IMG/VR virus record: IMGVR_UViG_3300021255_001866
Location: 25,314 to 89,313 of that record
Direction: 5' to 3' (one strand)
DNA from: a virus
Taxonomy: Duplodnaviria > Caudoviricetes
Length of the DNA: 64,000 nt
The notes under the pieces were generated by a model that was given only the letters and a program-made list of their open reading frames with translations, did no database searches and was not told the origin of the DNA. Shown here one piece after another: positions 7,631 to 19,880 of the stretch. The position numbers were made by a program, and so were the translations under genes. Numbering within the stretch: position 1 is the stretch's first letter; each line of letters starts with the position of its first letter.

Positions 7631-10606
7631 TTAACTAAGCATCTCTCTGAACCATCTGTACGTAACGTCGAGCCCTTTTGCAATCGCGTACGGCGCGCAA
7701 GACGATTCATCGTATTCCTGTACCTCCAAAAGTGCAGACGCTTTAGGATCATATGCTTTTCCGAAAAACCATGCATATGATTCTTCTACGTTCTCTCGGG
7801 CGCAAATTTTTCCATGGAGCGTTGTATGATCGATCGTTGATGTATTGTAATAATCGACCGGATCTCCATTTGTCCACGTAGTGTTTGCGTACCAAATTTT
7901 TGCCAGTTCATCAATCATGACGTTGAATTGGCTGCGCGTAGAAATCTTTTCTGCGGTAAAATATCCGAGAGAATACGAGCAATTATGCAGGTCAATATAA
8001 CAGTCTTTTGGATTATTGGCAAATCCATGAACTTGCATATAATCCGTGAGAGCTTTCGCTTCGCTTGCATATGTGGGGATAGTGAGCGTCGAATACGAGG
8101 GGTTGGTATTGTCGGTACATACACATTGCCTATTTGCATCATACAGTGGCAAATCTTCGTCTGGCACTTTCTGAGATCGGTCTGCATTATATGCCGCCGC
8201 AAGATAACGCCGATAATAGTCATAACTCCAGCGATCAAGGCATGGCACTATGCGATATTTTTTCCCTTTCAAAAATTCTGAATAAATTGTACCCGTCATA
8301 AATGCGCGTCTGAACATAGCATATAGGTTCCAGCAGGGGGATGCTTCTACGCCGTGGGTGCCCGCTGTTATATAGATAGTCGGGAGGTTGTCGTAAGTAA
8401 TATCTACGTTGCTCCCATAAGTCAGCTTGGGGTGTATATAATACGCTTTTACGGGTTTATAGTTTGCGCCGCTCGTATCTATAGAATATCCAATTGTTTC
8501 TCCCGCATCAATATATTGTGGATATTTAGCCTGTAATGCGTCCCATAGCGCGTACACAACATCGCTCGATATTGTCCTAAACCCGCCAGGATGATCACCC
8601 CAAGCTGTCGAGTTGCCGATTGTCACGCCGATTTCGCCGAGCGACGCAATCATTTCATCGTTTTCTTCCGATGGGACGTGCAAAAGGAAATCGCTATTTT
8701 GCCACGCATATTGTTGTGCGATCGTCGGAATGTTTGTGATAGTGCGCCATTCGTCAAACCGACCGCTGTCAATCATGATGTGACGTAACCAGATTTCGGT
8801 ATATCCGTTTGTAGCCAATACCTGATATACATGATTTGAGTTGTGTGTATTAAATACAGTCAGCAAACCGGTTGTATCAAATTGTTGCGGCTTGTTGAGC
8901 AAACTACGTCCAATAACAGTTGTTCCGATTCGCCATTGCCCCGGTTGGACATAATCGTTGAGATCGTCGCCAGATTCCACAGCGTCGTCTGTTATTGGGG
9001 ACAAATTAAATCTGCTTGCGATCTCCTGTTGCAATGCGGTTATCGTACTTCCTTGTGTTATTTCCTGCCACTCTTTGAAGTAGGTTCCGTTGTAATAGCG
9101 CACATATATCCCAACGCTATTCATCAAGCCTGTAGCATTGGCTATATATATCTGCACACAAGTAGACTTCGACGATGTATTTGATACGATAAGTTTGCCG
9201 CTACGAGCCAGCGGCATATTAGCAACAGTGTTCGCTATTTCCTGTGTATTCACGGCATACTCACCGGGAGAAGTATAATCGTTAAAATCATCGTTGGCTG
9301 CGACGCTATCCTTTGGAACAATGGTCTTCAGTGCTGAATCGGCAACTTGTTCCACCAAACGTAGATCAGCCTCTATGTCCTCGTTGCTTTCAGCGGATAG
9401 CATAATTGGATTTACAGTCTCATCAACGGTATGACTGGAATTAACCCTAAGGAGTACGTTTATTGCCGTAGCGTTTTCCGGCAGTGAGAAAGTTCCGTCA
9501 TTATAAAAATCATAATTACCGAGTGACGTACTTCCGTTGTATGGCGTAAATCTTAGCCGCACATTTGCGCTGCTGTACTGTACGTTATACGTTTTACCGG
9601 GGACAAATCCGGTTGGCAGCGGCACGGGGGCACCAACCGCACCAATCATGAAATTGAAGGCCGCTGAACTGGATGTGCTGCCCTGAACTCTACATTTTCC
9701 ATCCGCATCCCACTCCCAAGTAATCCCTGATTGTGTATAATCAACGCCGCGCGGCAAAAGGTTAACTGAATTATATTGGATTAAGACGTTCTTTACATCA
9801 CTTGTTTGGCGATTTAAGTTGCTTACATCATTTGCAAGCGCCACTTGTGTCCAATCATCTGGATCAAACGCCGGTGTAGCCACTCCACTATTATCAACTG
9901 CTTGAATACATCTATACAGATTATCATTATAAATACAATAATCCCCGACTGCATAAGTAGTTTTCGCCCCAAACAAATCACCAATCATATCGGTATCTGC
10001 TTCATTATCACGAACTCTTTGTAATTCTACTTCTAAAGTTGTTGCAGTAAAATGTGTCGCGTTCCATGCTGCTGCATTATGTGCAGTGGTACATCTATAA
10101 AGTGTTCTGGTAGTAATTCCATTCGCAGTAGTCGCGTAAAATACTAAATCTCCAACTCTATAGTCTACACTTGCGCTAAAGTCGCCAGTGATACACCCAT
10201 GCTCAACTTTGCGACTATCAACCGCATTTAATGCAGTTTTGGTGCCGCCGCTCTGTACAGCATTTGTACTTCCTAAAGTTGGTGCGGCATCTACATTATA
10301 AATTGGACTGTTTTCATCATTATCAATCCATAAATCCCCTACTCGTGGATTGGCTGGAGCGCTCGCTTGACTTGGTGGAATATCGAGTTTTCTATCTAAT
10401 TCTGCGCCCATATTTGTTTCTACAAAATGGGATGCATTCCATGCACCAGCCGCATGAGCAACTGTACATCTATATAATTTACCTTGGTAAGTGCAATAGT
10501 CCTTTACTTTGTAGGCGGTCGATGTATTAAACTCGACCGCCGTAAGTGGGACTCTTGCTGTTTCTTGACCTGGTAATGTTAAACTATGAAAAGTTTTCTC
10601 TGCCAT
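7631..10606 (-). CDS. Tail-associated protein: three CBM-like repeats, two knob-like repeats, C-terminal M14-type zinc peptidase domain
   Basis: Three Y.V.D....LYRC...W/F repeats; repeats DDFNDYTSPGEY and DDLNDYVQPGQW; IYITAGTHGVE, DANRQ and YIDLHN resemble M14 metallocarboxypeptidase motifs. No TAG. Confidence 0.7.
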   Translation of the reverse strand: MAEKTFHSLTLPGQETARVPLTAVEFNTSTAYKVKDYCTYQGKLYRCTVAHAAGAWNASHFVETNMGAELDRKLDIPPSQASAPANPRVGDLWIDNDENSPIYNVDAAPTLGSTNAVQSGGTKTALNAVDSRKVEHGCITGDFSASVDYRVGDLVFYATTANGITTRTLYRCTTAHNAAAWNATHFTATTLEVELQRVRDNEADTDMIGDLFGAKTTYAVGDYCIYNDNLYRCIQAVDNSGVATPAFDPDDWTQVALANDVSNLNRQTSDVKNVLIQYNSVNLLPRGVDYTQSGITWEWDADGKCRVQGSTSSSAAFNFMIGAVGAPVPLPTGFVPGKTYNVQYSSANVRLRFTPYNGSTSLGNYDFYNDGTFSLPENATAINVLLRVNSSHTVDETVNPIMLSAESNEDIEADLRLVEQVADSALKTIVPKDSVAANDDFNDYTSPGEYAVNTQEIANTVANMPLARSGKLIVSNTSSKSTCVQIYIANATGLMNSVGIYVRYYNGTYFKEWQEITQGSTITALQQEIASRFNLSPITDDAVESGDDLNDYVQPGQWRIGTTVIGRSLLNKPQQFDTTGLLTVFNTHNSNHVYQVLATNGYTEIWLRHIMIDSGRFDEWRTITNIPTIAQQYAWQNSDFLLHVPSEENDEMIASLGEIGVTIGNSTAWGDHPGGFRTISSDVVYALWDALQAKYPQYIDAGETIGYSIDTSGANYKPVKAYYIHPKLTYGSNVDITYDNLPTIYITAGTHGVEASPCWNLYAMFRRAFMTGTIYSEFLKGKKYRIVPCLDRWSYDYYRRYLAAAYNADRSQKVPDEDLPLYDANRQCVCTDNTNPSYSTLTIPTYASEAKALTDYMQVHGFANNPKDCYIDLHNCSYSLGYFTAEKISTRSQFNVMIDELAKIWYANTTWTNGDPVDYYNTSTIDHTTLHGKICARENVEESYAWFFGKAYDPKASALLEVQEYDESSCAPYAIAKGLDVTYRWFREMLS

Positions 10607-12481: not shown

Positions 12482-13105
12482 ATGGAAAATACCGATTTTA
12501 TTTTTGAACTCCCAGAAGATCTCTTCGATACGAAGCTTCCAAATAGCTTCTATTTAAAATATTATAATGACCTCAAAAATCGTATTATATGGATCAACGA
12601 AGAAATTACTGGTGATTTAACTCATGAGCTTACGCATTATATTATTCAATGGAATCGAGAAGACCGCAATATTTCGGAAATGGATCGCAAGCCAATAAAA
12701 CTTCTCTTTGATAGCCCCGGTGGGGAATTAGATGCGCAAGCTGCAATATGTAGTATGATTGAACTTTCAAAAACACCAGTTATTGGTATAGCCATCGGTA
12801 TGGTTGCTTCGGCCGCTTCTTATATATATCTTTCATGTCATGTGCGGCTGGCCCTAAAATCAAGCTACTTCATACTTCACAAAGGTAGTGCAAACCTTAC
12901 TGGTGATTTTGACAATATAATGAACTCTATTGATGACTACAAAAAAGAAATTGATAAGTTAGTCAACTTTATAATAGAGAAAAGTACCTATACGAAAGAA
13001 GAAGTAGAAGAGCATATCAAGAAAGACTGGTATGTTAGAGCGCCGCAAGCTGAAGAAAAAGGTTTAGTTGATGAAATCATCACAGATATTAATGTTTTTC
13101 TTTGA
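12482..13105 (+). CDS. clpP: ClpP-like protease subunit
   Basis: FDSPGG, GMVASAAS (catalytic Ser), ILHKGS (His). Confidence 0.85.
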   Translation: MENTDFIFELPEDLFDTKLPNSFYLKYYNDLKNRIIWINEEITGDLTHELTHYIIQWNREDRNISEMDRKPIKLLFDSPGGELDAQAAICSMIELSKTPVIGIAIGMVASAASYIYLSCHVRLALKSSYFILHKGSANLTGDFDNIMNSIDDYKKEIDKLVNFIIEKSTYTKEEVEEHIKKDWYVRAPQAEEKGLVDEIITDINVFL

Positions 13106-13115
13106 GGTGAACTAA

Positions 13116-13940
13116 GTGTATACTGGCTATAAAGAGTTTGTTTACTCTAACAATGATATGTCAAACTTCTACACAGATCCAAGCTTATTGGCTTCTCAAT
13201 TTAAAGAAAACGAATATCTTCTTATAAGTGATGCTGATGGTAAAGTAGTAGATAAATACTGTTTTCAAAACGGTCAATTTAGACAAGTTCGTTTTCCTAT
13301 GATTACCAATAAGTATTCTAAACCCATTAAACCGCGCAATGACCATCAAGTTTTAGCATTAGATTTACTTCAAGATAGAACTTCTAAAGTGAAAATTTTG
13401 CGTGGTGTATACGGAAGTGGTAAAGACTTCCTTATGCTTAATCAAGCACTTGAATTTGTTGAGAGTGGCCTATTCGAGAAAATCGTCTATATTCGCCCCA
13501 ACGTAACTGTCGCAAATGTTCCCGAAATTGGCTACTTAAAAGGAAGCGCCGAAGAAAAACTCGAATGGACTCTTGGCCCACTCTACGACAAGGTTGGCGG
13601 CAGAGATGGTATTCAACTTCTAATGGACAATGGACAATTAGAAATGGTTCCACTTCTCCATATACGCGGCCGCAGCTTTGACAACAGCATAATGTATGTA
13701 TGTGAAGCACAAAATATCACAAGCGAAATTGCAAAGCTCATTATAAGCCGTGCTGGAGAGAATACCGAGATCTGGTTAAACTCTGATACACACCAGGTTG
13801 ATCATAAAACCTATGAGAAAGATAATGGCATTACCAAAATGATTGATAAATTGAGTGGTAATAAATTATTTGGATATGTCTATCTACCAAAAACGGAGCG
13901 CGGGCCAGTTGCAGAATTGGCTACTCTGTTAGATGACTAA
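13116..13940 (+). CDS. phoH: PhoH-family ATPase
   Basis: GVYGSGKD, IRGRSF, CEAQN, IISRAGENT. Confidence 0.85.
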   Translation: MYTGYKEFVYSNNDMSNFYTDPSLLASQFKENEYLLISDADGKVVDKYCFQNGQFRQVRFPMITNKYSKPIKPRNDHQVLALDLLQDRTSKVKILRGVYGSGKDFLMLNQALEFVESGLFEKIVYIRPNVTVANVPEIGYLKGSAEEKLEWTLGPLYDKVGGRDGIQLLMDNGQLEMVPLLHIRGRSFDNSIMYVCEAQNITSEIAKLIISRAGENTEIWLNSDTHQVDHKTYEKDNGITKMIDKLSGNKLFGYVYLPKTERGPVAELATLLDD

Positions 13941-13982: not shown

Positions 13983-15728
13983 ATGGCACAAGCAAAAGTG
14001 AATATACCATATCCTCACACAAGCATTGAAAACCCTATTGCTTATAACTGGGGTAATGACGATAGTTGGGCTGGGCAGTTTTGGGAAAGAAGGCGGCAAG
14101 CCGTTATTTCAAAACTAACTGGGTCAAGAGTTAATTATGATGATAATCTTTAGGATTTACGCATATTGGGCGAACGCATGAAGGCATTGGGTGAAGCCGA
14201 AAGATAGAAAGAATTGAATTTATTACGCCGCGCGCTCCCAGATTTTGATTTTTCAAATATAGATGAGAATCAATTGATTCAAAAATTGAATGAAGTAATA
14301 CGTGGGAAGGAATAGTTTGAATTTGCTTTATAGAGAATTGAAGCGGCAATGAATCATGGTGGTACAATTGCAAAGACTACAAATGAACCATTCAAAGGTT
14401 TGGCGCCTTCTATGGCATCTGTTTTTCTTTCGTATTTAACTACAGAAATGGTAGCTGTCTTCAATTAGTTTGCATAGTAGTTAAATATTAATGATTCAGT
14501 TTCATAGTGGGATGTATATTTAGAATAGCATTTTAATGAAGCTGTAGATATTGCTATGCGAAAAATGTTAGAAGAATCACGTGTTGGTAAAGAAGTAGAT
14601 AAGATCTATGGAGATGCCGATCAATGGCGCGCAATTGGTGAAGCATATAGAATGTTAAAACCATTTCAAGATTAGTTTAAATCCATGTTAAGATCAAAAT
14701 TAAACTTAGATGAACTAAAAACTGCCTTTACTAATGGTGAAAATAGTGCTATATTAGCAAAAGCACAGCGTGGTAATAAACGAAGCGGTTTTAGCACATA
14801 TTTACGAAAAAATTTGAAATGGGATAAGCGTACTGCAAGTATTGGTGGTTCTGTTGCTGAGTATTTAAATACATTGATTGCTAATATGGTTCCAAAAGGC
14901 GGCACTATAACGGATAAGGCCACTGTTGTAGTTGAAGGTGAAAAAGTACGTACTGATACTGTAGGTGTATATCAATTTACAGTTGAGGGTGAATTTGATG
15001 CCGCTGAATTAGCAAATGATTTAAATAATGTACTTACAAGCGCGGGCGGCCTATCGGATGCCGCAGAAGGATTGCGAAATTTCTATAACAGAAATTTGAG
15101 AAATTTAAACGATACGTTTATAATATATACCAGTACGAAAAACTACTCTTTAGGTAGTGGTTTTAGTGGTTTTCATAATGGTAGTAATCTTCCTCTTAGA
15201 CGACTTCCAGAATATATTGATGCGGCCGGAATTAGTGCTGATGTAGGTCAAGATTTTGTTTATACTGCATATAATACACTTGAAAGTGCAGTGTTTGAAG
15301 ATGAACGTGAAGATATAAGGTAGAATATCGTCAATATTTTAACAAGCGCCGCCGCAAAGTTAATGTTTGATGATTGGCAAACAATCGGTGTTCCTAATGT
15401 AGGTGCGCAATCGATCCATGTATTTGATTTGGATGGTATTTCTATTCCAGCGAGCTTACTATTTATTAGACTTGGAACTGCTATGATGACGGCGGTTAAT
15501 GAAATGAAAACATGGGTATCTGTACGTGTTCACTTACCACATACTGTCTTGTATCACCCTGATGATTGGAAAACTTTTGGATCTACCAATGAAGACATTA
15601 AAAAGGGCATCTATCAAAAATGGGAAGAACAAGCAAAAATGGCGGAAAAGGAATCTGAATTTTCAGTGAAGTTTCTTTATAATTTTAAATCTTTGATGCG
15701 TTCTTTAATTAGCGGCGTTTCTATTTAA
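13983..15728 (+). CDS. Hypothetical 581-aa protein with 11 in-frame TAG
   Basis: AGGAGG RBS; one frame free of TAA/TGA from 13983 to 15728, joining track fragments 14685-15323 and 15363-15728. Confidence 0.8.
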
Positions 15729-16769: not shown

Positions 16770-16772
16770 TTT

Positions 16773-16824
16773 TGACTTTTTAATAAATCTATAGTATAAT
16801 ATATATAGAAAATGAGAAAGGGAG
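16773..16824 (+). promoter_or_regulatory. Representative of a repeated sigmaA-like promoter/leader motif
   Basis: TTGA(T/C)T-N16/17-TATAAT-ATATATAGAAAAT(G/A)AGAAAGG; copies with -35 at about 16773, 18823, 20436, 21381, 24284, 26645, 27946, 29472, 34195, 37182 and 38379. Confidence 0.8.
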
Positions 16825-17167: not shown

Positions 17168-17455
17168 ATGAAGAGAGTCGGACCGGAAGATATTATCCAG
17201 ATCAATGAAGCATATCTGGCATGTGGTACTTATAGTGGCGCGGCGGCAGCTACTGGATGGTCAGCTTCAACGGTAAAGAAATATGTTGATCCAAATTATA
17301 AAAGTCAACCAGTAATAACAGAAGATGAAGTTGATATTGAACTTCCACCGCTCTCTCAAGTTGCCGAATGGCTGCCGCCTTGGTATGATATTACTTGTTT
17401 GACGCCACAAGAAGAGAAAGAAATCAAACAGCTCTGGAAGGAGATGTTGGTGTGA
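17168..17455 (+). CDS. Small HTH-containing protein
   Basis: TYSGAAAATGWSASTVKKYV helix-turn-helix pattern. Confidence 0.55.
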   Translation: MKRVGPEDIIQINEAYLACGTYSGAAAATGWSASTVKKYVDPNYKSQPVITEDEVDIELPPLSQVAEWLPPWYDITCLTPQEEKEIKQLWKEMLV

Positions 17456-17766
17456 AAACCTATTTTGAATTTCGTGAGACAAGTAATAATGGTTGGACTA
17501 TTTGTCCAGTTCATAAAGAGTGGATTGGAGAAGATTTCTCAAAGCCGATAAAAGGTAGTTTTAATTTGTTAGCTTGTAGGGTGTCTGGACTTAGCTGGCC
17601 GCAATGGCTTCGGTATTGTCGTCAAAATGGTGCTTCTTTATATGGGAAGGGACATAAATATGTAGTGGCTGTATGGAGAGAACCGAATAAAGCTTTCCTT
17701 ACAAAACTTAACCAGCGGGCTAATGACCTTGCGAAGATTATTGATTTTAAGGAGTTGAATCTATAA
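17452..17766 (+). CDS. Hypothetical protein
   Basis: GTG start overlapping the upstream stop; intact ORF. Confidence 0.6.
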   Translation: MKTYFEFRETSNNGWTICPVHKEWIGEDFSKPIKGSFNLLACRVSGLSWPQWLRYCRQNGASLYGKGHKYVVAVWREPNKAFLTKLNQRANDLAKIIDFKELNL

Positions 17767-17900
17767 TGGATAAGCAGATCTTTAAGAAGACTGGCGAAGA
17801 ACTTCAAGAGTTTTTGAATTTTAGGAAGAGAGCCAATAGAGTACCAAGTAAGAAGGGTAAAGGTTCATATAATCGTAAAGATTTTAAGAAGGGAGAATAG
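17766..17900 (+). CDS. ArfA-like (alternative ribosome-rescue factor-like) 44-aa basic peptide
   Basis: MDKQIFKKTGEELQEFLNFRKRANRVPSKKGKGSYNRKDFKKGE carries the KKGKGSY.RK signature of ArfA; start overlaps the upstream stop (TAATG). Below the ORF-track size cutoff. Confidence 0.6.
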   Translation: MDKQIFKKTGEELQEFLNFRKRANRVPSKKGKGSYNRKDFKKGE

Positions 17901-17901
17901 G

Positions 17902-18114
17902 ATGGATGTAAAGCTATGCCCGAGATGTAATAAGTTGCCAAATATTAAGGTGAAGCATAAACTTAGATATATGTGTGTTATGAGTTGTGGTACACTTGGG
18001 TGCAAGTTGTATTATCCCATTATTACACTTGGTTTTAATAAAGAGAAGACAATGAAGAAGGCGGCCGAGCGATGGAATGCTGCGGTTGATAGATATGATG
18101 ATTTAGTTCTATAA
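17902..18114 (+). CDS. Zinc-ribbon protein (Lar-like)
   Basis: CPRC...CGTLGC and a C-terminal AAERWN. Confidence 0.55.
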   Translation: MDVKLCPRCNKLPNIKVKHKLRYMCVMSCGTLGCKLYYPIITLGFNKEKTMKKAAERWNAAVDRYDDLVL

Positions 18115-18813: not shown

Positions 18814-19162
18814 AGTAAAAATTTGATTTTTTCTGAATTTTAGTGTATACTATATATAGAAAATGAGAAAGGGGGATAAATAAAATGTACGATGATTTTG
18901 ATACCATGCAGCAAATTGAAGAAATTATTCCCGATGAATATGATGATTGGTGTCGTTGGGTATATGGTGGTGCTTATCGAGAAGAAGAAGATTAAATGAA
19001 AGAATTTTTATTTAAAGTTTCAACTTATCATTATGTTGCTGCTGAAAATCTTGATGAAGCATATGAGAAATTAGAAACAGAAATTATAAACGAATATGAT
19101 CATGTTGTAGATGTTGAAACACTTGATGAATATGAACTATAAGATTTAAAATAAGACATATA

Positions 19163-19231
19163 TTGGTTTGGTGTAGTGGAGATGCACGGCCTTCGCAAAG
19201 GGCAGGGATTAGTTCGATTCTAATAACTGAT
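19163..19231 (+). tRNA. Degenerate tRNA-Cys(GCA)-like gene
   Basis: T-arm ATTAG-TTCGATT-CTAAT and loop TC-GCA-AA; weak acceptor stem, no CCA. Confidence 0.45.
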
Positions 19232-19239
19232 AAAAATCC

Positions 19240-19880
19240 TGAGTCACAAGGAAGTAAAAGATATGTAGACGGTCGCTAGTGTGTAGAATTCTAGATGCGG
19301 TGTCACAAGCATAAATACCACACAACGAATTGATGGTTGTTTTAAGTAGTTTTTCTTCCTCGATATGAAAAAGGTCAAAGTTTAAGCGGCCAGCAACTGT
19401 CGCTATAAAAATAAGTTAATAAGCCAAAGATGAAGTAAGATGTTGGTTCGAATCCAATTCTGCCGAAAAGTGGCAGGTAGTTTAATTGGTAAAACGGCGA
19501 AGAATCTCAATTGGTGTCTCACACAATCCTTGTGGCGAGACAAGTGTGATAAGTCCAGTTACGGCGGTAGAGAAAGATACGCCACATCTATGCTCTACTT
19601 AAAAGGACGTGTAGGGTACCTCCACGTTGGTGCGTCTGGACGGAATTAGGAGCGCAAACTAATAAACCGAGAACTAACACCCGAGATAGTAAAAGCATAA
19701 TATAGCGTAAAAGCTTATTCATTCCTCTTCAAGTATAGAAGGCGGATACATTATCCGATACAACAGTACCTGGACGTGCACATAGAATTTCGGCCATAAT
19801 CGAGATGGAGGGAGCCGTGGAAGCGAATGAAGCTATCGAATTGATGTACTGGGGTGACGGGCAGTATAATCACACCGTCA
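19240..19880 (+). ncRNA. Candidate large structured ncRNA containing a circularly permuted tRNA-like module (19438-19500)
   Basis: No credible ORF; many hairpins; a T-arm, then a loop-closed acceptor stem, then a D-arm. Confidence 0.5.

Follow-up and report, generated by a model that had tools for sequence, protein, structure and literature searches.

A conserved minimal ArfA-like gene upstream of the tRNA array in a TAG-recoding phage

We analysed a 64,000-nucleotide stretch (hereafter, the window) of an 89-kb IMG/VR record from a rumen or gut phage, estimated to be 73% complete, and concluded that the open reading frame (ORF) at 17766–17900 is a real, conserved gene under purifying selection. 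The encoded peptide is very probably homologous to the ArfA family, of which it would be a distant member rather than a chance likeness. On balance, and by homology with E. coli ArfA, we favour the reading that this is a phage gene for a minimal ArfA-family peptide giving RF2-dependent rescue of ribosomes. Its relatives form a divergent minimal ArfA branch that is nearly confined to large phages of the gut and rumen; many of these recode TAG, and many have the gene within their tRNA arrays.

Selection on the gene and its relation to ArfA

Comparison of the gene with its relatives indicated that dS was saturated (above 1.3) and dN was only 0.17–0.27. Two near-identical pairs gave dN of 0 to 0.03 at dS of 0.33 to 1.06. 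The frame, its amber stop and the ten-residue tail that would follow read-through (QDGCKAMPEM), all described in a first-pass annotation made from the letters alone, were confirmed in the sequence (Table 1).

PF03889 (ArfA) was the only Pfam match of the window protein (E = 5.8e-4; 19.7 bits, under the curated gathering score of 25.5), and a search of NCBIfam with this protein gave no match. Among the aligned relatives, 22 of 24 matched PF03889 at E ≤ 0.01, the best at 4.2e-6. When homologues were clustered at 90% identity, 11 of the 81 clusters carried a precomputed PF03889 domain and 2 were named ArfA by JGI; an exhaustive profile search yielded 321 family clusters at 50% identity. The family profile was also compared with the PDB, where the top matches were six distinct E. 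coli ArfA chain sequences (E about 1e-3) and the next match had an E value of 0.044. The first-pass annotation had noted the ArfA likeness, and HMM comparison supported it as homology: hhalign of the family against short ArfAs annotated with PF03889 gave a probability of 97.8% (E = 1e-12), and E. coli ArfA, taken from NC_000913.3, matched the family at 90.8% (E = 1.2e-6), with E. coli residues 17–54 placed on window residues 11–44. The likeness also exceeded that of shuffled Lys-rich peptides: with an HMM of the PF03889-annotated short ArfAs, the real peptide scored 35.0 bits, and the best of 20,000 shuffled peptides with its Lys-rich composition reached 15.1. Searches of deposited phage genomes with blastn and tblastn gave no match, where the low-complexity filter may hide the peptide.

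The E. coli motif LFRQRVEKNKKGKGSYMRK, quoted in the first-pass annotation, was read directly in NC_000913.3. The residues kept from E. coli ArfA in the alignment were F25, R26, R28, K33–Y39, R41, and K42. KKGKGSY.R was invariant in the 24-sequence family alignment and identical to E. coli residues 33–39 and 41. In the N-terminal segment, E. coli E17, L19, F25, R26, and R28 had counterparts, and A18 aligned with Glu; the hhalign match did not extend to window residues 1–10. The C-terminal end of the phage protein fell at the position of E. coli R48, window residues 11–44 being aligned with E. coli 17–48.

Genomic setting and distribution

The features around the gene are collected in Table 1. 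The TAATG overlap with the upstream small ORF, which had no significant family match, suggests translational coupling. On the other side, the Shine-Dalgarno sequence of the downstream gene, GGGAG, lies inside the codons for KKGE, the last codons of the ArfA-like gene, and the possible read-through tail overlaps the start of that next gene in a different frame. In the window, the gene directly 3′ is a Lar-like restriction-alleviation zinc-ribbon gene, which also matched phrog_599 (E = 0.0085); among relatives the downstream gene differs (Lar-like, HAD phosphatase, and others) and the junction of Shine-Dalgarno sequence, stop, and ATG is kept. No terminator-like site was found on the plus strand from the putative promoter to 19459, so the ArfA-like gene may be co-transcribed with the tRNA-Cys gene at 19161. 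A search of the record for a second copy of the ArfA-like gene found none.

Table 1 Features of the window around the ArfA-like gene and in the tRNA array.
Feature	Position	Strand	Remarks
Putative sigma-70-like promoter	16772–16800	+	TTGACT-17-TATAAT; consensus match only, 11/12; best upstream of the small-gene operon
Upstream small ORF	17395–17766	+	Start at 17395 or 17452; TAA stop overlaps the ATG of the ArfA-like gene (TAATG)
Shine-Dalgarno sequence	17749–17754	+	AAGGAG, 11 nt before the ATG at 17766; read from the sequence
ArfA-like gene	17766–17900	+	44 codons and TAG stop; peptide MDKQIFKKTGEELQEFLNFRKRANRVPSKKGKGSYNRKDFKKGE
Amber (TAG) stop of the ArfA-like gene	17898–17900	+	Between the Shine-Dalgarno sequence of the downstream gene and the ATG of that gene
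Possible read-through tail	17901–17930	+	After TAG (Q), nine sense codons (DGCKAMPEM) and TAA at 17928–17930
Lar-like zinc-ribbon gene	17902–18114	+	70 aa; PF14354, E = 1.1e-5, 26.0 bits, under the cut-off of 28.6
tRNA-Cys	19161–19233	+	ARAGORN; first gene of the tRNA array, 1260 nt 3′ of the ArfA-like gene
Suppressor tRNA, CTA anticodon	40085–40155	+	Would read TAG; ARAGORN label tRNA-Pyl (cta)

In bacteria, arfA is expressed from an mRNA without a stop codon, which RNase III cleavage or premature termination generates (PMC6299226, PMC8327144). Unlike E. coli arfA, the window gene has no internal hairpin, RNase III site, or terminator, and hence we consider that arfA-type non-stop control is lacking in this copy. 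The 3′ end of the gene showed no stable RNA structure or hairpin (z = −0.10) and no terminator, which does not support the idea of the first-pass annotation that its ending echoes the tail-controlled regulation of ArfA.

The window phage recodes TAG, as the first-pass annotation had supposed: its portal gene contains 5 in-frame TAGs, other late genes contain as many as 10, and the window also encodes a tRNA whose anticodon is CTA. A 581-codon frame at 13983–15728, which contains 11 in-frame TAGs and matched no PHROG, adjoins ClpP-like (12482–13105) and PhoH-like (13116–13940) genes. As this TAG-rich frame sits among TAG-free genes, code-15 genes are interleaved with standard-code ones. The tRNA array comprises 11 ARAGORN tRNA calls from 19161 to 40155. 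Between tRNA-Cys and tRNA-Glu, positions 19420–19524 gave a sub-threshold Rfam match to YrlA (Y-RNA-like; 30.5 bits, E = 0.0012, where the gathering score is 69). Release-factor genes (PF00472) were found neither in the window's record nor in 5 relatives, and the tmRNA search of the record returned only tRNA-like fragments below the threshold.

The family was identified at 61 IMG/VR loci, mostly in phage contigs of 90–400 kb. Bacterial genome collections gave 16 matches, all but one in MAG contigs that were mostly binned as Bacillota. In sampled Clostridia, the family model matched 4 of 300 genomes (two matches were strong, both in MAGs), and PF03889 gave 2 weak matches in 201 sampled genomes of Bacilli. 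Since the loci are mostly phage contigs and the bacterial matches are few and nearly all in MAG contigs, the family is essentially phage-borne. The host phylum is probably not proteobacteria, judging from the Bacillota bins and the strong use of Shine-Dalgarno sequences. One look-alike was observed in the chromosome of Cytobacillus sp. FJAT-54145 (L077:4929–5075), a 48-aa ORF ending in KPSKKGKGSYNRKDAKRVAF with a PF03889 score of 22.1 bits. We rejected it as a sign of a cellular Bacillota family because none of 120 other genomes sampled from the family of this bacterium contained it; it is sporadic and possibly acquired. The phage gene is accessory: among complete close portal relatives, it was present in G001 and G257 and absent in G253, G254, and G255.

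The surroundings of the gene in its relatives support a role in translation. A same-strand tRNA gene was found within 2 kb at about half of the family loci, and at many loci a tRNA starts between 17 nt upstream and 23 nt downstream of the last nucleotide of the stop codon. In the clade with KHK-type tails, the ArfA-like gene lies inside the tRNA array. The tRNA begins 2–5 nt past the stop at L017, L018, L031, L040–42, L043, L047, L072, and L073. A conserved TGTGCT TAA TAT ending, which gives a C-terminal Cys-Ala, was observed at L017, L040, and L047 (about 10100–10160) and at L072 and L073, with tRNA-Glu 3–5 nt after it. L033, L034, L036, and L038 end in TGTGCG TAG, followed by tRNA-Val 20–23 nt later.

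At four loci, the ArfA-like frame has no stop of its own (L007:10001–10213, L015:10001–10208, L019:10001–10220, and L027:9953–10210). These frames enter the next tRNA (Gly, Pro, His, and Gly, respectively) by 15–17 nt and meet a TAA in its D-arm. An RNase P cut in L007, L015, and L019 would leave a non-stop message and a product of about 45–48 aa, close in size to the window protein; the product of L027 would be about 45 or 60 aa, depending on the start codon. By analogy with the bacterial gene, tRNA 5′ processing could replace RNase III cleavage or early termination in these phages.

Two further arrangements were observed. In L026 (9983–10879), a phage tmRNA (10534–10879, tag DNNYFDSHMAA) lies 400 nt 3′ of the ArfA-like gene within a 32-gene tRNA/tmRNA array, and one phage thus carries both rescue routes. 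The 115-kb relative G029 has two ArfA-like paralogues, one of the FKRGE type and a divergent one of the KGRG/KHK type (L132 and L134:1477–1659; L133:1486–1650). The divergent paralogue is followed by a conserved Cys-rich ORF, which is present in G252 as well.

TAG recoding and the amber stop

The gene lies in TAG-free early regions, so the local ORF coverage around it is uninformative on recoding, and in-frame TAGs in the portal gene were used instead. By this test, which gives a lower bound and covers records with a portal match only, 21 of 33 carrier records had in-frame TAGs and 12 had none. The ArfA-like gene is absent from G255, a close relative that is complete and recoded. Of the 40 loci scanned, 8 had a suppressor tRNA with a CTA anticodon within the 20-kb locus of the gene, in most cases as part of the same array of tRNA genes. 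We concluded that the presence of the gene is only partially linked, and not tied, to TAG-recoded genomes. Co-occurrence with code-15 phages, a check named in the first-pass annotation, was thus partial.

A survey of recoded phages described suppressor tRNAs, aminoacyl-tRNA synthetases, and RF2 as the gene sets of code change and mentioned neither ArfA nor rescue (bioRxiv 10.1101/2021.08.26.457843). In RF1-free E. coli, ribosomes stalled at UAG are resolved by tmRNA, ArfA, and ArfB; when termination at UAG fails, proteins ending in UAG are destroyed through tmRNA tagging, which also blocks viruses that contain UAG, and deletion of tmRNA restores virus growth (PMC6207430). Because tagging destroys UAG-ending proteins, tag-free release would spare the phage, a consideration that we offer as rationale only.

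Across the family, the stops of 62 IMG/VR versions were about 15 TAG, 28 TAA, and 19 TGA, and among the carriers sorted by the portal test the stop was TAG in 5 of the 22 recoded ones, counting the window, and in 4 of the 12 non-recoded ones. The amber stop is thus neither a family rule nor tied to recoding. A different picture was obtained for the window's own clade (tail FKKG...), whose versions were gathered by DNA pattern scans of viral and metagenome collections: 115 unique DNA versions comprised 46 TAG (40%), 46 TAA, and 23 TGA, whereas only 70 of 1263 neighbouring ORFs at the same loci (5.5%) ended in TAG, an odds ratio of 11.4 that is not corrected for relatedness. After single-linkage clustering at 75–80% DNA identity, 7–8 of 32–36 clusters were purely TAG (p about 1e-3), and the signal was lost at 70%. 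Terminal TAGs elsewhere in the window are very rare, and the one at 17898–17900 is among very few credible ones. The TAG excess in the window's clade is real, and the amber ending is not neutral, given its frequency among clade versions and neighbours.

The sequence beyond the stop is not conserved. The read-through tails of relatives range from 1 to 24 aa and are unrelated in sequence, five of them being a single residue. The recurrent Asp of the tail is the G-ATG of the next gene read out of frame, and MPEM is its CPRC zinc motif read out of frame; substitutions in the overlap are synonymous in the frame of the next gene and not in that of the tail. An acidic start of the tail was considered as a sign of selection and rejected, as it arises from the same out-of-frame ATG. 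Two designed isoforms, which the first-pass annotation had assigned to different stages of infection, are unsupported because the tail is conserved in neither length nor sequence.

A wider idea, which we put forward tentatively and consider rather doubtful, is that phage ArfA-like genes are purposely built with conditional termination, so that their output would report the state of both termination and trans-translation in the infected cell. The amber stop would serve this in the window's clade, and stopless frames running into a tRNA would serve it in another, the RNase P cut there being comparable to RNase III for bacterial arfA.

Proposed function and comparison with known systems

In RF2-dependent rescue by the window peptide, the basic tail KKGKGSYNRKDFKK would enter only an unoccupied mRNA entry channel, namely, that of a ribosome that has reached the 3′ end of a message that is broken or lacks a stop. 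F-R-x-R and the short helix at the N-terminus would then keep host RF2 in its active shape, and the nascent peptide would be cut from the tRNA with neither a stop codon nor a tmRNA degradation tag. The 44-aa form would be produced while RF1 reads TAG; after the suppressor tRNA comes into play, read-through would yield a by-product of 54 aa whose tail is not under selection. The 44-aa form is probably made constitutively, since it has the size of processed ArfA and the gene has no arfA hairpin. The standard-code small-gene operon leads into the tRNA array, which would fit a toolkit that keeps host ribosomes usable while messages and tRNAs are damaged or reprogrammed. Ribosome binding, RF2 recruitment, and expression timing are what we infer from the homology with ArfA. 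To our knowledge, ArfA is not known in Bacillota. ArfA has been treated as a back-up factor of Gram-negative bacteria, and rescue factors have been reported to be non-interchangeable between species (PMC8327144). With hosts that are probably not proteobacteria, this counts against RF2-dependent rescue, as do the Pfam score under the cut-off, the lack of an NCBIfam match, the first 10 residues that fall outside the hhalign match, the Glu aligned with A18, and the negative search for release-factor genes in the record and 5 relatives.

Alternatively, an ArfA-derived peptide may dock in the empty mRNA channel with another output. It might recruit RF1, or RF1 and RF2, in the manner of ArfT; or it might simply occupy non-stop ribosomes and thereby keep host tmRNA–SmpB from tagging and destroying phage proteins. 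This alternative would be consistent with several points: only the channel-binding tail and F-R-x-R are common to ArfA, the N-terminal segment being different; a KGKGS-like tail can accompany the use of RF1, as ArfT shows (PMC6299226); tmRNA deletion restores virus growth upon failure of UAG termination (PMC6207430); and few sampled genomes of Bacilli (2 weak matches among 201) or Clostridia (4 among 300) carry a cellular ArfA-like gene. However, the ArfA-homologous segment starts at E. coli residue 17 and includes more than the tail, blocking alone would leave ribosomes trapped instead of freed, and the partner is hypothetical; we regard this alternative as unlikely. Far more improbable is that the frame is a chance Lys-rich ORF or encodes a generic basic peptide that binds nucleic acids and has nothing to do with ribosome rescue. 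The protein is indeed very short, of low complexity, and under the Pfam cut-off, but the shuffle test, the profile–profile matches, purifying selection, the 321 clusters, the invariant KKGKGSY.R, and the tRNA-array setting all argue for a genuine ArfA-like gene.

The amber stop invites a further alternative, in which it acts as a switch: RF1 would give the 44-aa form early, and a suppressor tRNA would later give a 54-aa form of different activity or stability, with read-through ribosomes that might cover the start of the next gene. The excess of TAG over the neighbouring ORFs, the purely TAG clusters, and the rarity of other terminal TAGs in the genome would agree with a switch, as would the retention of TAG in all lineages with saturated dS. 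Against it, TAG, TAA, and TGA are freely exchanged among close relatives, TAG is found in non-recoded as well as recoded carriers, the tails are unrelated and sometimes one residue long, the overlapping next gene explains their recurring letters, and substitutions in the overlap are silent in its frame and not in that of the tail. We consider such a switch quite improbable and retain RF2-dependent rescue, with the longer form as a by-product, as our reading of the gene.

If RF2-dependent rescue is correct, phages bring their own tag-free ribosome rescue. This would bear on failed termination in code-switching phages, on withstanding RNA-cutting defences, and on whether ArfA can work with the RF2 of Gram-positive hosts. 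The amber-stop excess provides a testable handle on the use of TAG in the early genes of recoding phages.

Among known systems, E. coli ArfA (YhdL; PDB 5MDV, 5MGP, 5U4I, 5H5U, and 7OJ0) is likewise a small basic peptide with F-R-x-R followed by KKGKGSYxRK. Mature ArfA has 52–55 aa, and its KGKGS motif binds the empty mRNA channel (PMC6299226). The length of the window protein corresponds to this processed, active form; it is six residues shorter at the N-terminus, has two extra residues between F-R-x-R and KGKGSY, and lacks the hydrophobic C-terminal tail. Furthermore, it is phage-borne, and its hosts are probably non-proteobacterial.

Phage ArfA genes have been annotated as gp30 of pelagiphage HTVC027P (PMC12753301) and g10 of Citromicrobium phage RXM (PMC8953757), neither paper mentioning a tRNA-array or code-15 context. 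We found no functional study of phage ArfA in the literature, nor any mention of its occurrence in gut phages, its place in tRNA arrays, or an amber stop. Both annotated proteins are phage-encoded PF03889 proteins of about 43–55 aa, as in the window's family, and the short INPIAR-type ArfAs (alignment A2) match that family at 97.8% probability. In contrast, HTVC027P and RXM are phages of Alphaproteobacteria, and their N-terminal segment reads INPIAR where the window's family has KKTGEELQ.

No sequence relation of the window protein to BrfA of B. subtilis or ArfT of Francisella was detected, as NCBIfam gave no match and ArfA was the sole Pfam match. Their mode of action is nevertheless similar: each detects an unoccupied mRNA channel through a small basic tail and brings in a release factor (PMC8327144, PMC6299226). 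BrfA, which is made from non-stop mRNA, is the known solution in a Gram-positive host, and ArfT uses RF1 or RF2.
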